From a phage, in NCBI GenBank assembly GCA_026683435.1, contig GCA_026683435.1_4866.1: a DNA stretch of 64,000 nucleotides, one strand, 5' to 3'. The notes under the pieces are model-generated. The model was not told the origin of the DNA and did not search any database. It worked only from the letters and a program-made list of their open reading frames with translations. Positions within the stretch are counted from its first letter, which is position 1, and every line of letters starts with the position of its first letter. Positions 31,929 through 49,448 of this stretch are shown here, piece after piece. Made by a program: the position numbers and the translations under genes.

Positions 31929-33443
31929 TTACACCTCTTCTTCTCGCAGTATGCGACGGTTTGCGTAATACGCACACCACAACCCATGATACTCTTTACC
32001 GATATAGATTAAGAAGTAACGGATGTAGTATTTTTCAGGACGACACACCGCGATGTAATAACGGCCTTCGGGTTCTTTAATACGGTTGATTTCCGTACGA
32101 GACGGAATATCAATACCACGCGTCAAAATAACCGAGACAGGTCGTTTACCCATCGGAAAGTCAATCTTTAACGTTATTGACTTATCGACGCTACGGTAGT
32201 ATTCCTTAACAGGCTTACCTTTGTCATCGAACAACAAGTCAGTAATATCATTTAAGACATAACCCTTTTCCTGATGCAGAACATCACGCAACGTTGTAGC
32301 GAGTTCGTCACGAATATCCAGCGCACGGTACGACAATAAGGGCGGGCGAAGCATTCTGGAGATGGCCAGGTCTTCAAAGAACCAGACATTGGAATCTTCT
32401 CCACTGAAATGCATCTTGTCTGCCGGTAATCCATCACCTGCCACGTCAACGAACTTCTTACGTTTAACGAACTCATTGTTAACAACACCGATTGGATCAT
32501 ACTGCCGCATCTTCGGTGTATCTTTCCATGCCAGGGCGGCGTGGTTGTTTACAATCGTGTAGATGTTATCCCACGGTTGTTTAGTGAACATTACGGAAAA
32601 GTGTGCATCAGGAATCATTTTCCCAATAAACACCAAGTCGTCCTTGTTCTTTGCATGGTTGCCACCAAACATGTAATAGAAAGTTTCATCTTTCACTTTT
32701 ACAGTAGGATGGTCCTCGTTCACCAACGGATAGCAATATTTAACCGTACAAATCGGCGGATATGCCGCAAGGTTCATCCCAGCGGCGATGGGCTCGGGTT
32801 CCGCGGATGCAGGCAACTCATCCTTCGACCAGTACGGCTGATATGGAACGCCGTCGTTGGTCGCTGTGATGGCTGAACCTTTTCTAGCCAATTCGTCCGC
32901 CCGGTCGTTACCGTAGTGGCCGGAGTGTCCTTTGATTTTGATAACCTTAACACCCCGTCCTTCTTTTTTCATCTGCTGTTTGATTTCCCAGATACGAACA
33001 ATAAGTTCTTTGTTCGCCAGCGGAGTACCGTCAGCACGAACCCAACCGCGTTTATGCCAGCCGTCTATCCACTCGTTAAAAGTGTTTACAACGTAACTGG
33101 CATCCACGTAGATGATATAGTTCTTCGCGCGGAAGGGCGCGTTCTCAAACAACGTGATGAAGGCGATTAACTCGCCCACATCTGAGTAGAACTCTTTCGG
33201 AACGGGAATAACGGCGTCGACAAATTGAACGGTGTCCGGCAACTCCGGACACTTCACATCCTGCGGCACTTTTTTGTATCCAACAGTGGTAATCCGTTCT
33301 GAAACACCCGGATGGCTATAAGCCTGACTGTCTTCCAAATCTCCGTTGTTGAATAAATAACCATGAATACCAGCCCCCGAACCTTTCGGGGACTCAGTAT
33401 GACTACCATCGGTATAAATAACCGCTACGTCGACGTCTTTCAT
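31929..33443 (-). CDS. RNase HI domain fused to C-terminal domain of unknown function
   Basis: N-terminal ~190 aa carry RNase HI motifs: TDGS, ELIAF, YVDASY, WHKRGW, KGHSGHYGNDRADELA; C-terminal ~310 aa unassigned. Confidence 0.85.
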   Translation of the reverse strand: MKDVDVAVIYTDGSHTESPKGSGAGIHGYLFNNGDLEDSQAYSHPGVSERITTVGYKKVPQDVKCPELPDTVQFVDAVIPVPKEFYSDVGELIAFITLFENAPFRAKNYIIYVDASYVVNTFNEWIDGWHKRGWVRADGTPLANKELIVRIWEIKQQMKKEGRGVKVIKIKGHSGHYGNDRADELARKGSAITATNDGVPYQPYWSKDELPASAEPEPIAAGMNLAAYPPICTVKYCYPLVNEDHPTVKVKDETFYYMFGGNHAKNKDDLVFIGKMIPDAHFSVMFTKQPWDNIYTIVNNHAALAWKDTPKMRQYDPIGVVNNEFVKRKKFVDVAGDGLPADKMHFSGEDSNVWFFEDLAISRMLRPPLLSYRALDIRDELATTLRDVLHQEKGYVLNDITDLLFDDKGKPVKEYYRSVDKSITLKIDFPMGKRPVSVILTRGIDIPSRTEINRIKEPEGRYYIAVCRPEKYYIRYFLIYIGKEYHGLWCAYYANRRILREEEV

Positions 33444-34162
33444 TATTCTCCTCGCAACTGCGGTGGAATGTATTCACCTGTGCACATTTCGCGGTGGGCT
33501 TCTAACATGCGTTCGAAGCCGTACGTACGCGCAACCAGGGCCAAATGATAGATGCGTGCCGTAGAATACGCTTCCTTCGCAGCATCAAAGCTAGCGTTAT
33601 GCTCGTACGCTTCTTTGCCACGGGTCCAGTGGTGCGCTTCTGCGTGCCAGTTCGGTTCCAGACCAAACGCATATGCAATACGTTCTGCAGTCCGGTCAGA
33701 GTCCAATATAGAAAACTTGCGGTACTTGCCCGGCGGGATATCGCACTGCGCGAACGCGTTCATCAGAATTGGAGCATCGAAATCGGGACCGCGCATGGTG
33801 ATAACCATTTTCACGTTGCCCAGATCATCCAACCATTTTTTAGCCGCCCACAGTGCTTCTGGCAGTGGAGTGGTCCCAGAAAACGCTTCAATGCGTGCTT
33901 TCTCGCTCGGTGCGTATTCGGGGTCGCCTTTACCTTCCCAATAACCGACCGTTTGTGGATCGATGTAGAAGATTTCTTTTGCTTTTGCATCGTTGGGGTC
34001 GATTTTGTGGTAACATGAACCGATCATTTTCATTGTCGGAACATCGAATGCCACGTTTGCCAACGTTAAGATGTAGGCATCTGGACGTAAAGCCAGGGTC
34101 TCTAAGTCCGTCCCAACAACAACGGTGGGCGTTAAAACAGGCAGAATTTTAGGATAGGTCAT
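33443..34162 (-). CDS. DEDDh-type 3'-5' exonuclease
   Basis: Exo I motif VVGTDLETLAL, later HNASFDAAKEAY (H-x4-D); 239 aa. Confidence 0.75.
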   Translation of the reverse strand: MTYPKILPVLTPTVVVGTDLETLALRPDAYILTLANVAFDVPTMKMIGSCYHKIDPNDAKAKEIFYIDPQTVGYWEGKGDPEYAPSEKARIEAFSGTTPLPEALWAAKKWLDDLGNVKMVITMRGPDFDAPILMNAFAQCDIPPGKYRKFSILDSDRTAERIAYAFGLEPNWHAEAHHWTRGKEAYEHNASFDAAKEAYSTARIYHLALVARTYGFERMLEAHREMCTGEYIPPQLRGE

Positions 34163-34221
34163 TTCAACTCTCCACGAGATTATATATCACACTATTGACT
34201 ATTAACGTAAAAAAGGAAATC

Positions 34222-34245
34222 CCCTCTTACCCGAAGGTAAGAGGG
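34222..34245 (-). terminator. intrinsic terminator (minus strand)
   Basis: hairpin ccctcttacc-cgaa-ggtaagaggg, T-run on minus strand. Confidence 0.65.
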
Positions 34246-34250
34246 AGTTT

Positions 34251-34730
34251 TCATTGCACAAGGCAACTACTTTTGTGCCGTTCGTAGGCACGATTAAAAG
34301 ACTCTCTGTCTTCGCGATAGCTGCGAATGAGAGACTTAATCTGTCGTGACAAATCACGACTAATGTCTTGAGGGCTACGAGAACCAGGGTCGAGATATAT
34401 CCCGGAGGGTATACCATGAAGAGTGGGGCGAATAAACTCTTCACAAAGCGGTGCGGTCATCGGGGTGTGCCACCCTTTAGCTTCTGCATAGTTGTTTACT
34501 GACTTAGCGTACAGATAAACGTAATAAGCATAAGCGTTCACATCCGCAACAAACATTTTCCCTGCCAGCTTTTTCGCCTCAGGACTGTTCCCACCGTTAT
34601 ATACTGGTGGGTGTTCTAAAGGACGAAAAGGCCAATCTCCGGTTGAGGAGTAATCTGGGTCTACGTGACGGATGACCCCAGGGCATCCTGTCAACAATAG
34701 CACCAGTATCGCCACCAAAAATAACTTCAT
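34251..34730 (-). CDS. lipoprotein (candidate outer-membrane partner of upstream gene)
   Basis: N-terminus MKLFLVAILVLLLTGC has signal peptide with lipobox LTGC; 159 aa. Confidence 0.75.
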   Translation of the reverse strand: MKLFLVAILVLLLTGCPGVIRHVDPDYSSTGDWPFRPLEHPPVYNGGNSPEAKKLAGKMFVADVNAYAYYVYLYAKSVNNYAEAKGWHTPMTAPLCEEFIRPTLHGIPSGIYLDPGSRSPQDISRDLSRQIKSLIRSYREDRESFNRAYERHKSSCLVQ

Positions 34731-34739
34731 GTATGCTCC

Positions 34740-35255
34740 TCATGGATTATTAAGCGTACTGATAATCTCCTGTCGGAAATCGTTTGCCGCCTGCGACCCC
34801 ACTGGGCGAGAAGCTGCCTGGTGTTTCTTGGCAGGCGGGCTAGACGGATTTAACGGTGCCTGTGGTGTTACCGGCTTGAGTTCTTCAGGCGGAACCGCGG
34901 CCCCAGTGCCTGTCCCTGTTGGAGATTTGGTACCATCATATGGCGATCGAGAACCCAGGCATGTGAAGAGACGATCGTACAGCTTATTGTTCTCCACTTC
35001 GCCATGATCGGACTTCTCTTTTAGCTCCTTATAGGATATCTCCAGATACTGAGTACGCGATTGGACGCTAACCAGTGTGTGGTATTGAACAATGTAGGCA
35101 TATGAGACAAATGCAGAGAACGCGATCAGTGCCACTATCACTAGTGTCACTATTTTCCCGGCTCGTGTTACTTTCTCCCCCTCGCCCGGTTTAAATGCTT
35201 CCCACAGAATCTGTAAGAATGGAAGCAGTTTGAAAACTGATGCTATCATGCTCAC
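34740..35255 (-). CDS. inner-membrane-anchored protein with short coiled-coil and Pro/Ser/Thr-rich C-terminus
   Basis: 171-aa ORF; single hydrophobic helix IVTLVIVALIAFSAFVSYAYIV near N-terminus. Confidence 0.7.
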   Translation of the reverse strand: MSMIASVFKLLPFLQILWEAFKPGEGEKVTRAGKIVTLVIVALIAFSAFVSYAYIVQYHTLVSVQSRTQYLEISYKELKEKSDHGEVENNKLYDRLFTCLGSRSPYDGTKSPTGTGTGAAVPPEELKPVTPQAPLNPSSPPAKKHQAASRPVGSQAANDFRQEIISTLNNP

Positions 35256-35273
35256 CTCGGAGAGTTTTTAATT

Positions 35274-36653
35274 ATGTATGATTTACAAGGCTTTATTCAA
35301 ATAGCGGCTCTGATTGATAATGGCCCTGGCAACACCGCTCCGGTAGGTGAGTTGTCTGAGCTGTCATATTCGTTCGCTAAAAGCAAGCAGTATTTTACTA
35401 AAGAAAATCTGCAGGTGGAACTGGTTGCTTTTACTTCTAAACGTGACGAGTTGCCTATTAAGACCCCGGCCGTCTTTAGCGACCACGTTCTTACTGTTTC
35501 CCAATGGATCTACCAACAGTCTATCCTGGGCAACTTAAGAAACGACGAAGTTGAATTCCAGCGTTTGCTGTTGGGGCAATTTAATAGTGTCATCAGCGGT
35601 GTTCAGTCTGGCGCGATGATTCAGACTAACAGTAACTGGTTCCCACGTTGGGTCAGTTGGAAACTTGAAACCACAGCAGATAAAGTCGAAGACCCGTCTG
35701 ATGTAAATAACCAGATTATTCTCTGGTTTGCTGATGAAGATTTCAATCAGGACTATACTGGATTTGAAATTGAAGTCCAAATGCCGATATTACCGGTTGA
35801 TACTTTCTTGGCTGTGAAATCTGTAGTCGAAAAGGCAATGGAAGGGTTCAACCTTCCGGATCACCATAATAAGATTAACGAATTAGCTGACGGTTATCCG
35901 TACACTAGCCTGATTACTAACATCTATACTTGGCACGACCAGGAAGACTTTGACTCCACCTTACCGATACCGATGTCGGCTATCATCTACGGACGCGCGG
36001 GTCGTAACCCGAGCAGGATTAAACAAGCGTTACGTGATTACATTTTGGCAAACTCCAGTTTTACTGTGGCGTTGGGTGTCAAAGTGTTCCCAGAAATCTT
36101 TACGACCACCAAGTTCACAATTGTTCCCGGTTGGTCAATTCGTGGGATTCCAAATGAGGAAGATGTTGCGGCATTATACTCGCCGATTCTCCCATATGAT
36201 TTCTGGGTCAAAGCAATCTCCCGATTTGGGGAGTGGACTGTTCAAACCATTACGGAAAAAAATAGTGGAGCGATCTCGATTCCAACTACCGATGTAACGG
36301 ATTTACCGTCCATCTATAAATCGTTGAACGCCGTGGTTATCGCTGGCCCTGAAAACGATTCACGCAAAACGACCCTGCATGACACAATTCCTGACTACGC
36401 ATTAATCGGCACTAATAATGCGGATATTGCGAGAATGTCGAAGAAAACCACCGAGTGGTTGGATCTGTTCTTCCAGGCGTTAATTGCAGCCGAAGAGTAC
36501 CATCCGCACTCCACCCCGTTGGATATCGTGAAGCTCGTAGACGACGTTGATCCTAACGTTTACTTCTACGTCTTCGAATTCGATAACGTGGAATATCGTG
36601 TCTTGGCCCGTAAGGCCATTTGGGATGTTCCTGCGGTAGAGCCAAAAGCCTAA
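35274..36653 (+). CDS. hypothetical protein (probable virion protein)
   Basis: 459-aa ORF; plus-strand island ending in strong terminator. Confidence 0.75.
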   Translation: MYDLQGFIQIAALIDNGPGNTAPVGELSELSYSFAKSKQYFTKENLQVELVAFTSKRDELPIKTPAVFSDHVLTVSQWIYQQSILGNLRNDEVEFQRLLLGQFNSVISGVQSGAMIQTNSNWFPRWVSWKLETTADKVEDPSDVNNQIILWFADEDFNQDYTGFEIEVQMPILPVDTFLAVKSVVEKAMEGFNLPDHHNKINELADGYPYTSLITNIYTWHDQEDFDSTLPIPMSAIIYGRAGRNPSRIKQALRDYILANSSFTVALGVKVFPEIFTTTKFTIVPGWSIRGIPNEEDVAALYSPILPYDFWVKAISRFGEWTVQTITEKNSGAISIPTTDVTDLPSIYKSLNAVVIAGPENDSRKTTLHDTIPDYALIGTNNADIARMSKKTTEWLDLFFQALIAAEEYHPHSTPLDIVKLVDDVDPNVYFYVFEFDNVEYRVLARKAIWDVPAVEPKA

Positions 36654-36663
36654 GGAGGGTTAA

Positions 36664-37287
36664 ATGGCACAACTGTTGCCTAACACGCCTCAGGTTAACC
36701 TTGAGGGGTTGTTCAAGGTTAAGACACCTTATACGTTGCCAGATAAAGTGATTTACCGTGTTGACGCGGTACAGAACTTTCCGAAACTCCAACGTAATAA
36801 TATTGACGTTTATAACAAGTATTATAAACCTGTCGGCCTAACTCGTGACGACTATATCAGCGACGCTAATGTCGAAGCCTCGATTGTAACATTAAAGTCG
36901 AGGGACGGTCAAGTCTACGAGTTGCCTGATACGTACATTGAGACGTATCCTGGACTGAACGGGTTAAATTATAGACGCAATGTGGTGGTTATTGACCTGG
37001 CATTAATACCCGAATACGTCGATGTCACACTGCTAACGAACGACCTGAAAAGCATCTTAGAACGCGGTTTAGGAATCGAAGCACGTGTGGACATCACATC
37101 GATGGATTACGAAGGGACGGTGACGGAAGAAGAACACTTGCAAATGGAAGCGGTGCGTAAAGCCAAAATCCGTGAGCAGGTTCCTCTGACAGAACAAGTT
37201 GCAACACTCACTAAGCAGAATCAAGAACTGCAGGCGTTGAATGATGCGATGTTGAAAATCCTGAAAGATAACGGGTTAACAAATTAA
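36664..37287 (+). CDS. hypothetical protein with C-terminal coiled-coil
   Basis: 207-aa ORF, RBS aggagg. Confidence 0.7.
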   Translation: MAQLLPNTPQVNLEGLFKVKTPYTLPDKVIYRVDAVQNFPKLQRNNIDVYNKYYKPVGLTRDDYISDANVEASIVTLKSRDGQVYELPDTYIETYPGLNGLNYRRNVVVIDLALIPEYVDVTLLTNDLKSILERGLGIEARVDITSMDYEGTVTEEEHLQMEAVRKAKIREQVPLTEQVATLTKQNQELQALNDAMLKILKDNGLTN

Positions 37288-37345: not shown

Positions 37346-38503
37346 TTATTTACCGATGATATCACGGACCATTGCTTTGATTGTGGCAACAGTACGTTTC
37401 TTTTTCGGCAGCTTGCGGATTTCTGCGTACAGTTTATCCAGGTTCAGCGTTTTCTGTACCTGCGCAACAATCTGCATTTGCTCTTCGTCGATCTTCACTT
37501 CGACGGTTTGTTCCTGCATTTTGCCCAGTTCCTGAATCACACTGGAAACCGATACCGGATAAGCTGTTGATTTTGGACGTTCGATACCGAGGGTAACAAA
37601 GATTTCGTCGTCAATAAACACATTTTCGATATCAACCAAGTTTTCCAGAATGATTTCATCGTGGTCTTCATCTTCCGACGCATTCGGGTATGGACGTTTG
37701 TAGGTGTAATCCCACACGTCATAACCGAGTTTATCTGCGAGTTGTACGAAACCTTCCCAGGTTACTTCGCCGGGGTTGATAGTCTGACCACGGAAACCGG
37801 GGTTGGCCGTAAAGACTTTCACCCAGTCGATGTTCGCGATGTTACGACACTCTTCCAGCGGCGCGTAACGATCTCCCACTTCGTCATTGTCAGTCTCTTC
37901 AACATGCTCTGCTTCACAACGCTCGAAAGTAACTGAGTGTGGTTTACCGTCACCGAAGATAACGGAGGCAGCACGCCAGTCTTCGATAGTCCACTGGACA
38001 TGAGTCAATTCAATGTAACAATGCCCAACCTTAACACGACCATGTGGAGCACTTACTGGTTTAATCAGCTCACCTGGTTCGAAGAAGAATTCGTCAGAAT
38101 GTGCAATGGCATACCAGACACCATCAACACCTTCAACGAGAATAGACCAGTTATAAGGCGCGTGGCAATTTTGGAAAGCTACGCCCAGCATACTTCCCCA
38201 ACGGTCATCTGGCGAATATTTCAGTGGCGGCAGGTTATCAAACTGAAGAGTTTGAGAAGAAAGGCACAACTTATTACGCAGGTGCGGCAGCGGCAGATAA
38301 GCCTCCACATTGTTATCGACCAGCGCATTGTAAAGATCCGGGTTGATAACACCGGTGCCAGTGACGTGTTGTGCAATCAGAGCTTCTGAATATGCACGAA
38401 TACCTTCGTAGCTAAGCACATACGCACGGTCACGTACTACACGAGCCATATCTTCGATTACGGAAATTGGAAATTTCATGTTAATAGTCCTTATAAAAGT
38501 CAA
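37346..38503 (-). CDS. hypothetical protein
   Basis: 385-aa ORF. Confidence 0.7.
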   Translation of the reverse strand: MTFIRTINMKFPISVIEDMARVVRDRAYVLSYEGIRAYSEALIAQHVTGTGVINPDLYNALVDNNVEAYLPLPHLRNKLCLSSQTLQFDNLPPLKYSPDDRWGSMLGVAFQNCHAPYNWSILVEGVDGVWYAIAHSDEFFFEPGELIKPVSAPHGRVKVGHCYIELTHVQWTIEDWRAASVIFGDGKPHSVTFERCEAEHVEETDNDEVGDRYAPLEECRNIANIDWVKVFTANPGFRGQTINPGEVTWEGFVQLADKLGYDVWDYTYKRPYPNASEDEDHDEIILENLVDIENVFIDDEIFVTLGIERPKSTAYPVSVSSVIQELGKMQEQTVEVKIDEEQMQIVAQVQKTLNLDKLYAEIRKLPKKKRTVATIKAMVRDIIGK

Positions 38504-38539
38504 TGGTATTTTCAGATGATTAGTTACTGCTGTAAAAAA

Positions 38540-38806
38540 CTAGTTACGGTCGGAATTAAAGACGTGCCAGGTACTACGCCAGCGGAAGAATCGGGTTATG
38601 AAACCACGTATGTGGTAGCCTGAGAACAACATCCAGATCGTGAGAAAAAGCTGCGCCCATGGAGTGGTGAGTTCCATCAAATGCGCGACTATCGCACCAA
38701 CTATCAACATTACCGTGGAGAATAACAAACTATACATCATCGGAATGTTGTGGCTATAGCGTTTCTCCATCCAGTAGAGAAAATTTATTAAACGTTTCAC
38801 GAACAC
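38540..38806 (-). CDS. small membrane protein with two predicted helices (holin-like topology)
   Basis: 88-aa ORF; two hydrophobic stretches and basic C-terminus. Confidence 0.5.
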   Translation of the reverse strand: MFVKRLINFLYWMEKRYSHNIPMMYSLLFSTVMLIVGAIVAHLMELTTPWAQLFLTIWMLFSGYHIRGFITRFFRWRSTWHVFNSDRN

Positions 38807-38830
38807 ACATCCAAGAATTAAATAAAAGGT

Positions 38831-38852
38831 GGTCAGACCCGAAGGTCTGACC
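38831..38852 (-). terminator. intrinsic terminator (minus strand)
   Basis: hairpin ggtcagacc-cgaa-ggtctgacc. Confidence 0.65.
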
Positions 38853-38857
38853 GTTAA

Positions 38858-39451
38858 TTACGCATCGGCCTCAAAGAACGGCTGGTTTGGTACCACTGCG
38901 TATTCGAGCACGAACAGATGTTCTGGGGCATCTTCTGCTCGCCACAGTTTGTGGCACGTTGCCAGTTTTTCCAGGATGGTCAACCAGCTGAGCTGGCAGA
39001 AAGCACGGTCGCCGAAGAACAGTTTCTGCAGTGCAATCGACACATCCATATACGCCTGTTTGAAGTCGAGTTCTTTATCGTAACCCGCCGACTGTCGCCA
39101 CGTCAGCACGAAACCTGCTTCGGTTTCGTTAATTGCTGGACGTAAACCACAAATCCACATCAGTGCCAGATTAACGTTCCAGTCGAATTCGATACCTTCG
39201 TCTTCGTCATCACCAAACGCCGCGTTTAACGCATCGTAGAAACCGTGGTTCTCTGCGAACCATTCGCCGTACTCAACGTAGACCGGTGCTTCGACAGCTT
39301 CCCCATCGACTTCACCGATAGGACGCTCTACATAGTTCGGGTTGGTTTGAACGTGTTCCGCACCCGCGCGAATTAATTCGTAGACATCTTTGGCGGTGAT
39401 TTGTGCGGCTGTTTTAAGACCTGGATACCAGGGGCGTGTTACGAGTGTCAA
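38858..39451 (-). CDS. hypothetical protein
   Basis: 197-aa ORF, 4-nt overlap with upstream gene. Confidence 0.65.
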   Translation of the reverse strand: MTLVTRPWYPGLKTAAQITAKDVYELIRAGAEHVQTNPNYVERPIGEVDGEAVEAPVYVEYGEWFAENHGFYDALNAAFGDDEDEGIEFDWNVNLALMWICGLRPAINETEAGFVLTWRQSAGYDKELDFKQAYMDVSIALQKLFFGDRAFCQLSWLTILEKLATCHKLWRAEDAPEHLFVLEYAVVPNQPFFEADA

Positions 39452-40170
39452 AGCAATGCTCCTTTCATGATAGTGTTATTTGCCAGTAGTGTACCGGCCG
39501 CAGGTGATATTTTGGTGTACAGCGTATCCCAGATTTTCTGAAGCTCAGCGACGCGTTGGTCGCGGTCTTCCTTCGCAAAAGCAAGCTGACGTGTTTCAGC
39601 TTTCGGTGGCGTCATTTTCGCACCGTAGAATGCTGCGTCTTTTCGGTAGCTGTCCATCCAGCGTTTCCCGACCGATGATTTCTTTTTAATCATCGCAACA
39701 GCAGCGCTCTCACCGAAGCGGTAGCCTAATGCAATTTCGGCTGTGCTCGGCTTGCGTTTGAGTTGTTTTGTCAGATGATCCTCGATGTGTTTCATGTAAA
39801 CAGCAGCAAGCTGTACAGCATATTTCGGTTTATTAAGGTCTGCGTTCTTTGGGATGTTAAGTTGTTTCCCATACAGACGTATCATGGAGCGTTTAGTACC
39901 TGTCGTCATTTGGACAACACTACTAGCACTGCTCGATTTATTCTTACCCACGTTTTTATTAAAACGGGATTCGCGGTAAATGGTGGTCGCAAGCATCCCG
40001 GCATGTACACCTTGCTTTTGAGATGCAGAGACGATGAGAGGTTTAATCTCATTGAACTGGTCCTGGATAAGGACAAATTCTTTTTGATGTTTGTTACTGG
40101 TGGACTGGTAAGAAGCGTTGCTGTTGAATGTGGTCACTGCTACCAGAAGAAATAAAATGGTGCGAAACAT
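39448..40170 (-). CDS. secreted or signal-anchored lytic transglycosylase-like protein (candidate endolysin)
   Basis: N-terminal hydrophobic signal MFRTILFLLVAVTTF; motif ESRFN…SSSASSVVQMTTGT parallels the SLT motif of the giant protein. Confidence 0.65.
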   Translation of the reverse strand: MFRTILFLLVAVTTFNSNASYQSTSNKHQKEFVLIQDQFNEIKPLIVSASQKQGVHAGMLATTIYRESRFNKNVGKNKSSSASSVVQMTTGTKRSMIRLYGKQLNIPKNADLNKPKYAVQLAAVYMKHIEDHLTKQLKRKPSTAEIALGYRFGESAAVAMIKKKSSVGKRWMDSYRKDAAFYGAKMTPPKAETRQLAFAKEDRDQRVAELQKIWDTLYTKISPAAGTLLANNTIMKGALL

Positions 40171-48135: not shown

Positions 48136-48546
48136 TTAAAAGTCGAGTTTATTGATGCCCACGTTTTTCTTAATCGTAGGGTCGTACATGATAACCGTCA
48201 GGGCATTGTCGCCTGGGTCGCGAGTAAACTCGGCAACGGCTTCACCACTGCAGGCTTGGTTATCATTATAGTTCATGGATTCGGCTTGCCCGGTTGCCAT
48301 GTTAATGACCCCGTATTCAGGGTCGCCACATGCGACACCGCCCATCGTTTTCACTAACAGATAACGGTTGTTATCGGACATCGCAACGATCTGGCAGCTA
48401 CCGCCTTGTACGTCAGAGTTCTGGCACCAGAACTCTCCGCCGTATTCGTGATCGTTAACAACTTTTGGTAACTCGATACTTCCAGCACGAGCGAAGAAGC
48501 TAATGGCCAGAGTAGCAAGTAAAACTGGTAATAAAAAATGTTTCAT
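48136..48546 (-). CDS. small secreted Cys-containing protein, paralog S2
   Basis: 136-aa ORF; signal peptide MKHFLLPVLLATLAISFFARA; motif LLVKTMGGVACGDPEYG. Confidence 0.7.
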   Translation of the reverse strand: MKHFLLPVLLATLAISFFARAGSIELPKVVNDHEYGGEFWCQNSDVQGGSCQIVAMSDNNRYLLVKTMGGVACGDPEYGVINMATGQAESMNYNDNQACSGEAVAEFTRDPGDNALTVIMYDPTIKKNVGINKLDF

Positions 48547-48568
48547 AATAGCACCTCAATTTTTTGAG

Positions 48569-49060
48569 TTATTCTGAATAGTCGATTGTTTTGATGGTTT
48601 CCATACCGTAGTACATAGCGATGGAGGCCAGAGTTTTGGTATCCGGTCGCTGTACAAAACCGGCCCTGAAATCTTTGCTGCAAATTTTCTCCACTGATAG
48701 TTCATCACGATTAGGGATAAGCCATAACGCGTCACCGTTGTGACGGTCGACTGCACCCCACCAACCTCCTGGGCAATCTTTATCGCCCGGACGGTGTACG
48801 ATAGCGACACGACCGTTGAAGGATATGTCAACTACACGACACTGTTTCTTAAGCAGCTTACGCGCATTGCACCAGAACGGCTTATCATTAAGATTGATGG
48901 TGCGGGTATATGCTGGAATGCTGCCGTTAATACTGCCCTGGAACCCGCTGAATTCGTCAGCGCGTGCCTTAGAAATCCGTAGCCCAACAACAACTGCCAT
49001 CAACAGCACAGTAAAAAGCACCACTTTGGCCAAGTGGCGATTAACGTTATTGCATTTCAT
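48569..49060 (-). CDS. small secreted Cys-containing protein, paralog S3
   Basis: ORF track 48569..49105; start moved to ATG 49060 (MKCNNV) with RBS ggagat; motif AIVHRPGDKDCPGGWWG. Confidence 0.65.
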   Translation of the reverse strand: MKCNNVNRHLAKVVLFTVLLMAVVVGLRISKARADEFSGFQGSINGSIPAYTRTINLNDKPFWCNARKLLKKQCRVVDISFNGRVAIVHRPGDKDCPGGWWGAVDRHNGDALWLIPNRDELSVEKICSKDFRAGFVQRPDTKTLASIAMYYGMETIKTIDYSE

Positions 49061-49448
49061 TTTTGATATCTCCACGAATGAGGGTGATGCGACCAACGAG
49101 CACATCGTTGTGATAAAAACTCACAGCAACCAGATCTGGTAATTCCAACGGTGATACGCTGACCGAAGTGACTTTTGGTTGATCGCACGATATGTCGATT
49201 AACCGCTGATACATTTTCAATTTCTTATCAGCGATAACCAGCCCTGTGCAGTTCTTACCGTCCGTCAGTCTGTAGATTTGTAACTGTTCGACCTCACGCA
49301 TCAGTTCCGGTTTTTCATTCGGCGCAATGCCATAATCCGAATCAGCTGATGTGTATTCAGTCACGTCTGGCTTATCGAAAGCATAAGTTGCTGCAATGCC
49401 ACATGCGGCCAGAACTACTACTGCTTGTAAGAACTTCTTGATAGTCAT
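49047..49448 (-). CDS. small lipoprotein or secreted protein S4
   Basis: 133-aa ORF; N-terminus MTIKKFLQAVVVLAACG with lipobox-like LAAC. Confidence 0.65.
   Translation of the reverse strand: MTIKKFLQAVVVLAACGIAATYAFDKPDVTEYTSADSDYGIAPNEKPELMREVEQLQIYRLTDGKNCTGLVIADKKLKMYQRLIDISCDQPKVTSVSVSPLELPDLVAVSFYHNDVLVGRITLIRGDIKNEMQ

Follow-up and report, generated by a model that had tools for sequence, protein, structure and literature searches.

A pair of adjacent genes that may encode a two-component spanin was analysed on the minus strand of a 64,000-nucleotide (nt) stretch of phage DNA (GenBank assembly GCA_026683435.1, contig GCA_026683435.1_4866.1), referred to here as the window and numbered from its first letter. 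The segment of the window surrounding the pair (33400-36700) is 99.3% identical to Escherichia phage vB_EcoM_EC001 (EC001) and 97% identical to Salmonella phage SPN3US; the source is an SPN3US-like jumbo phage, SPN3US being a member of the genus Seoulvirus, whose phages have genomes of 240 kb. The two genes are orthologues of SPN3US_0204, encoding an inner-membrane protein (gp204), and SPN3US_0205, encoding a lipoprotein (gp205). Both products are labelled hypothetical in all phage records inspected, both belong to PHROG families with no assigned function (8719 for gp204 and 8165 for gp205), and neither scores above any family cut-off in Pfam. An earlier examination of the window from its letters alone (the sequence-only reading) had described the pair as a cassette, either spanin-like or devoted to superinfection exclusion, and both of its open reading frames (ORFs) are present on the minus strand where it had placed them. 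Coordinates are collected in Table 1.

Table 1. Features of the gp204/gp205 locus, in window coordinates.
Feature	Position	Strand	Remarks
Inner-membrane protein gene, proposed i-spanin, gp204 orthologue	34740..35249	-	169 amino acids from ATG at 35249; alternative GTG at 35255
Lipoprotein gene, proposed o-spanin, gp205 orthologue	34251..34730	-	159 amino acids
Gene junction	34731..34746	-	Stop codon TGA overlaps GGAG (TGAGGAGcatacATG)
Intrinsic-terminator-like hairpin closing the two-gene unit	34221..34246	-	11-bp stem, TTCG loop, T-rich tail
SLT-family lytic transglycosylase gene gp198, syntenic partner outside the coordinates of the pair	39448..40170	-	Pfam SLT; N-terminal Sec-type signal peptide

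The reading frame first assigned to gp204 (34740-35255, 171 amino acids) stands with a different start. The ATG codon is preferred to the GTG since a GAGG (35258-35255) lies 5 nt upstream of it, overlapping the GTG, and since other records annotate the 169-residue form. The single N-terminal transmembrane helix proposed for the protein corresponds to its only strongly hydrophobic stretch (residues ∼26-56; the Kyte-Doolittle mean over 19 residues peaks at 2.48), within which the transmembrane segment was placed at ∼33-55; the stretch is conserved in 13 homologues. The 40 residues that precede Cys97 (57-96) keep a consistent heptad register, with hydrophobic residues at 0.64-0.75 of the a and d positions across the 13 homologues and 30-42% charged residues, in agreement with the short coiled coil described previously. 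Cys97 is followed by a (P)PY[DE]G motif and then by a 56-residue linker (98-153) of which 52% is Pro, Ser, Thr or Gly, compared with 19% in the rest of the protein, so that the Pro/Ser/Thr/Gly-rich C-terminal part is also borne out. The sequence-only reading had missed a conserved motif in the C-terminal helix, FRQEIISTLNNP, as well as a conserved hydrophobic or amphipathic segment at residues 1-20 (35190-35249, minus strand). The latter follows the pattern M-x5-K-L-x-P-x-L-x4-E, with PG after it in most homologues, and no part of gp204 is better conserved across the range that runs from Salmonella phages to those of Vibrio; several homologues are hydrophobic enough here for a second transmembrane segment to be scored (Kyte-Doolittle value up to 2.07 in Cronobacter phage CR5). 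Kept over the same range of phages are Lys7, Leu8, Pro10, Leu12 and Glu17, the transmembrane segment, the Cys with its (P)PY[DE]G motif, and a C-terminal motif ending in I/L-N. Of 13 phage homologues, 12 retain Cys97, and three of four further metagenomic homologues have a periplasmic Cys.

For gp205, the lipobox LTGC and the several Cys residues noted earlier were recovered as a signal peptide with a predicted lipidation site at Cys16, Pro at position +2, and further Cys residues at 96 and 156. The lipobox Cys is present in 11/11 phage homologues, in none of which position +2 is Asp, and it is at least 90% conserved in an alignment of 41 family sequences, throughout which Cys96 and Cys156 are invariant. 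On formal signal checks the transmembrane segment of gp204 and the lipobox of gp205 both passed, and both are conserved down to ∼25% identity. An AlphaFold2 model of gp205 was built from the 41-sequence alignment (mean predicted local distance difference test score, pLDDT, 89.5), an earlier run from seven close sequences (pLDDT 60) having been discarded. In this model a signal helix leads into an extended tether, after which two 35-residue helices (50-84 and 120-154) run antiparallel to each other and are joined by an ordered loop. The tether extends for ∼33 residues after the lipobox and contains the sequence WPFRPLEHPP. The first of the two long helices is conserved and aromatic-rich, with six to seven Phe, Trp or Tyr residues within 19 residues and a Wimley-White interfacial energy of -2.5 to -6.2 kcal/mol. 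Mature gp205 comprises 144 residues, of which 9% are Pro, concentrated in the tether. A Foldseek search of the model against BFVD returned family members as its only significant matches; weak matches to other jumbo-phage lipoproteins and to two annotated o-spanins (E 0.2-7) were not counted as evidence. A sequence profile search of the PDB gave nothing informative, and no informative family match for the pair was obtained from PADLOC, NCBIfam, Pfam or PHROG.

The two genes appear to be organised as one terminated unit. The lipoprotein gene begins 9 nt after the stop codon of the gp204 gene, as the sequence-only reading had it. The Shine-Dalgarno sequence of gp205 overlaps that stop codon. Elsewhere the gap between the genes is 2-13 nt, a range of 2-9 nt being given for other phages, and in Erwinia phage Wellington they overlap by 4 nt. 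The terminator reported downstream is a hairpin that begins 4 nt past the lipoprotein stop codon, with six G-C pairs in its stem. A pair of σ70-like hexamers lies just upstream of the unit, at no more than chance expectation. The start codons of gp204 and of the divergently oriented virion structural gene gp203 (plus strand) are 24 nt apart (35249-35274), so each promoter must sit inside the coding sequence of the other gene. Relative to SPN3US, with 97% identical DNA, the ratio of non-synonymous to synonymous substitution rates (dN/dS) is 0.36 for gp205 and 0.16 for gp204, values that rest on small counts (6-10 non-synonymous changes); the flanking exonuclease, RNase H and virion genes give 0.02-0.03 in the same comparison. 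By their ratios the two genes of the pair encode proteins and are held under purifying selection; they gather amino-acid changes about 10 times faster than these neighbours.

The distribution of the pair was investigated by tblastn and by profile searches. Both proteins were found in the same 73 phage genomes, which belong to jumbo phages of Salmonella, Escherichia, Proteus, Erwinia and Cronobacter, and the genes are adjacent, with the membrane protein before the lipoprotein, in all loci examined. Their pairwise identities co-vary (r = 0.94). When 1.84 billion representative proteins were searched with a profile of the gp205 family, 38 clusters with lengths of 79-206 residues were recovered; alignment of 34 of them showed conservation of the lipobox Cys at 90% or more. 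The pair is also present, at 25-30% identity and in the same locus throughout, in Vibrio phage pVa-21 and on six metagenomic contigs. The order in these distant loci is an SLT transglycosylase gene, an inverted module of DUF7194 and virion-protein genes, the membrane protein (∼130-160 residues), the lipoprotein, an exonuclease and RNase H. The transglycosylase gene is upstream of the pair in every lineage examined. In pVa-21 and in three further loci (L014, L027 and L028) only the inverted DUF7194 and virion-protein module lies between it and the pair, and in Seoulvirus three extra genes are found between it and the inverted virion module.

This arrangement bears on the earlier remark that no holin or endolysin is adjacent to the pair, which is literally true but misleading, since the SLT gene, annotated as a putative endolysin, is located 4.2 kb upstream on the same strand. 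Its product, gp198, matches Pfam SLT and aligns with the catalytic domain of the phiKZ endolysin gp144 at E 2e-12. It begins with a cleavable-type Sec signal peptide (MFRTILFLLVAVTTFNSNA/SY, the slash marking the cleavage point), and a signal peptide was also present on the SLT orthologues of the Vibrio and metagenomic loci wherever the N-terminus was read. The constant presence of the SLT gene near the pair suggests that the pair belongs to a dispersed lysis neighbourhood, of which gp198 is probably the peptidoglycan-degrading component. With such a signal peptide, gp198 would need no large-hole holin to gain access to the periplasm, and one may ask what restrains the enzyme before lysis. Also in this region is gp200 (38540-38806, minus strand), an 88-residue protein that is hydrophobic at residues 21-48, has no family match, and could be a holin or pinholin. 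SPAsTU and Wellington have an ORF of equal size at the corresponding position, but Asesino, CR5 and pVa-21 do not, so gp200 does not count among the core partners of the pair.

The spanin criteria applied here are those of Kongari et al. 2018 (PMC6139136), and the pair shows one transmembrane segment, a lipobox with no Asp at +2, adjacent genes, and an available periplasmic Cys, the last being a recurrent feature of spanins (PMC6139136). On the helix-dominated periplasmic domain asked of an i-spanin the observations are mixed, the heptad register standing beside a Pro/Ser/Thr/Gly linker that takes up about half of the periplasmic part of gp204; for the CR5 counterpart, the spanin database of the same study gives one coiled coil (66-99) and 30% helix in the periplasmic domain. 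In a genome-wide lipobox scan of EC001 with a PS51257-type pattern, no other membrane protein gene followed by a lipoprotein gene was found. Three other plausible lipobox ORFs (ACEC001_1580, ACEC001_1395 and window positions 49047-49448) were set aside, none having a type II membrane partner upstream, and the same scan gave no embedded Rz1-like ORF inside the gp204 gene. Spanins are known for extreme sequence diversity, and for this reason the fast evolution of the pair under purifying selection was also counted in favour of a spanin. Taken together, these features predict that gp204 and gp205 are probably a two-component spanin of separated architecture, acting to disrupt the host outer membrane at lysis. 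The spanin-like part of the earlier description is thus the best supported, and no support was found for the exclusion part.

Under this prediction, gp204 would be anchored in the inner membrane by its one transmembrane helix, with the C-terminal two-thirds of the protein in the periplasm, and the juxtamembrane coiled-coil helix together with Cys97 may give a disulfide-linked gp204 homodimer. The Pro-rich linker of ∼56 residues would let the C-terminal helix reach the outer membrane. There gp205, presumably lipidated at Cys16 and sorted to the inner leaflet, would hang on its tether of ∼33 residues, and its hairpin, stapled or dimerised via Cys96 and Cys156, may bind the C-terminal helix of gp204. 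The resulting complex would span the periplasm through the peptidoglycan mesh. The reach of the parts was estimated at 6 nm for the helix, up to 17 nm for the linker, up to 10 nm for the tether and 5 nm for the hairpin; the periplasm is roughly 20-25 nm wide, and the estimated reach is ample to span it. Degradation of the wall by secreted gp198, perhaps at the end of infection, would free the complexes to collapse or oligomerise. In the manner proposed for Rz/Rz1, the outer membrane would then be disrupted and the virions released.

A distant member of the family has been proposed as a spanin before. In SpaninDataBase (supplement to Kongari et al. 2018, PMC6139136), from which SPN3US is absent, CR5_183 and CR5_184 of Cronobacter phage CR5 are listed as separated i-spanin and o-spanin, each a singleton family, the assignment being a bioinformatic "best candidate". 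These are true homologues of the window pair (tblastn E 8e-11 at 36% identity and E 9e-6 at 30%), and they share its domain layout, lipobox, Cys positions, inter-gene gap and locus. Identity is only ∼30-38%, and the Derbicusvirus and Seoulvirus clades diverge in the C-terminal helix and in the tether motifs. The database groups families at 40% identity over 40% of the length, so that by this rule the window pair would found sister families. The gp204/gp205 pair is accordingly an unannotated member of a family already proposed as spanins, through one distant member in the 2018 supplementary table, and not a new kind of system.

Two other spanin pairs were compared. The spanins of phiKZ, gp141 and gp141.1, had been predicted in the same 2018 database (PMC6139136) and were later confirmed when they complemented lambda RzamRz1am (Manohar et al. 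2026, PMC12894885), which raises confidence in such predictions for jumbo phages. Like gp204, gp141 has ∼168 residues and is extended N-terminally of its transmembrane segment, which is followed by a stretch of helix, a linker containing Pro and a helix at the C-terminus; like gp205, gp141.1 is an unusually long lipoprotein with two Cys residues in its mature part. Both pairs moreover come from chimallivirus-type jumbo phages, and phiKZ has an SLT-type endolysin related to gp198 nearby. The phiKZ genes, however, share 116 nt and belong to one compact cassette together with the holin and a soluble endolysin, whereas the window phage has separated genes, an SLT enzyme with a signal peptide, and an interrupted cassette. 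Homology between the two pairs was rejected: BLASTP gave no match, the family hidden Markov model (HMM) matched only the signal peptide of gp141.1, the gp204-family HMM scored gp141 no better than 500 shuffled sequences, and hhalign of the gp205 family against the gp141.1 family aligned only 22 signal-peptide columns. In addition, gp141.1 matches Pfam PF23793 LysC (Rz1-like) at 3.6e-10, and 0/41 members of the gp205 family match it at E ≤ 1. With Rz/Rz1 of lambda the pair shares a type II inner-membrane protein with a coiled coil and a periplasmic Cys, an outer-membrane lipoprotein, and C-termini as the presumed site of contact, which for lambda is established (PMC6139136). It differs in that Rz1 is embedded in Rz and is Pro-rich and unstructured with ∼40 mature residues, and Rz has two coiled-coil helices. 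With the Pro-rich part in gp204 and the long helices in gp205, the division of labour looks inverted relative to lambda. A predicted spanin of Serratia phage PCH45, essential by transposon sequencing (Tn-seq), was also considered; the 30-kb segment examined holds no gp204/gp205 family member, and the essentiality data are hence not transferable to the pair.

Several observations weigh against a spanin. The lytic function of the gp204/gp205 family is a prediction from sequence, and neither sequence nor profile comparisons (Pfam, PHROG, NCBIfam and the searches against phiKZ) connect the pair with a characterised spanin family. No conserved holin was identified near the pair across the loci examined, and the pair adjoins nuclease and RNase H genes rather than a compact lysis cassette; linkage to endolysin and holin genes is usual for spanins, though not obligatory. 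The membrane protein holds a single coiled-coil segment only. One distant homologue of gp204, in locus L028, lacks a periplasmic Cys, and the conserved N-terminal 20 residues, located on the cytoplasmic side or within the membrane, are unexplained by the spanin model. The lipoprotein is, as modelled, among the longest proposed o-spanins in its mature form and a folded helical hairpin rather than a Pro-rich coil. Where Rz1-type proteins have ∼40-60 mature residues and are Pro-rich and unstructured, mature gp205 has 144, is helical and contains 9% Pro. The sequence-only reading had already called the lipoprotein unusually large and not Pro-rich, with which the helical mature domain agrees, and the SpaninDataBase curators annotated their entries "Too long?" and "Too long N-terminus?".

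Three other functions for an envelope-located pair were weighed against these data, and none of them gained positive support. It seems unlikely that the lipoprotein, with or without its partner, serves superinfection exclusion or receptor masking by blocking DNA entry or covering a receptor, in the manner of T5 Llp, Cor or T4 Imm/Sp. Such a role could appeal to the predicted envelope location of both proteins, to their faster evolution relative to the neighbouring genes (dN/dS 0.16-0.36 versus 0.02-0.03), to the σ70-like hexamers just upstream, chance level though they are, and to the position of the pair as its own terminated unit beside replication-type genes, outside any compact lysis cassette. 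Like gp205, T5 Llp and Cor (phi80/N15) are small phage-encoded outer-membrane lipoproteins; each is nevertheless a single gene directed at one receptor, FhuA, and known exclusion lipoproteins are generally sporadic and receptor-specific. The window pair, by contrast, is an obligatory two-gene unit conserved across hosts, with no sequence match to these proteins. It is a fixed syntenic core of the whole clade, whose hosts (Salmonella, E. coli, Erwinia, Cronobacter and Vibrio) presumably differ in their receptors, and neither Llp nor Cor typically works as one of two obligatory partners that span the envelope. No known exclusion or defence family was matched in PADLOC, Pfam, PHROG or NCBIfam; a better candidate in the genome is ACEC001_1580, a lone lipoprotein gene opposite in strand to its neighbours; and if the pair were not a spanin, the phage would have no recognisable one.

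The same absence of a spanin would follow if the pair were instead a periplasmic regulator of lysis that restrains the secreted SLT enzyme, or senses the envelope to time lysis, comparable to lipoprotein inhibitors of lysozyme such as MliC or to RI, the periplasmic antiholin of T4. The constant synteny of the SLT gene with the pair fits this idea, as does the signal peptide of the SLT enzyme, present in every lineage in which the N-terminus was read, which would place the enzyme in the periplasm before lysis and therefore in need of control, and the conserved N-terminal segment of gp204 suggests signalling across the membrane. An inhibitor, however, needs no inner-membrane partner with a long Pro-rich tether, and no similarity to known inhibitor or antiholin families was detected, so that we regard regulation of this kind as quite unlikely. 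A trans-envelope anchor for another purpose, such as DNA entry or envelope remodelling, would account for the conservation of the cytoplasm-facing N-terminus of gp204; the pair is divergent from two virion genes, across the 24 nt between start codons, and proheads have been reported to be anchored to the inner membrane. Yet docking in the cytoplasm needs neither a periplasmic domain with Cys nor an outer-membrane lipoprotein partner, and nothing links gp204 or gp205 to virions, which makes an anchor highly improbable.

Returning to the spanin, it is conceivable, if on the doubtful side, that the pair combines an inverted spanin design with a connection to a trigger, the lipoprotein supplying the long helices and the inner-membrane subunit the Pro-rich tether and the conserved N-terminal segment. 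In such a design the aromatic-rich helix of gp205 could act as a membrane-active element, and the N-terminal segment of gp204 could couple disruption of the outer membrane to membrane depolarisation. The context for this proposal is that these phages have a Sec-secreted SLT endolysin with no conserved holin beside it.

SPN3US is the genetic model for the giant phages of enterobacteria, relatives of which are being characterised as agents against Salmonella and Erwinia, and its lysis system is still unannotated. While the present result mainly improves annotation, the proposed spanin assignment and the tie to the SLT gene give a testable map of the lysis module for the clade. If the assignment is true, it adds to spanin diversity a well-sampled and structurally unusual family that combines a helical-hairpin lipoprotein with a Pro-rich inner-membrane subunit.

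Other exported proteins are encoded in the same genome. Outside the window, and on the strand opposite to its neighbours, lies the gene for a lone lipoprotein of 163 residues (MKRLFIVFAFISLLTGC...), at positions 38417-38908 (minus strand) of locus L017, which correspond to MN445185.1 136417-136908; this lipoprotein is a more typical candidate for superinfection exclusion than gp204/gp205. Within the window, positions 48136-49448 (minus strand) encode three consecutive small exported proteins, all with several Cys residues: one of 133 residues with a lipobox-like LAAC, one ORF of 178 residues with an internal membrane or signal segment, and one of 136 residues with a signal peptide (MKHFLLPVLLATLAISFFARA).

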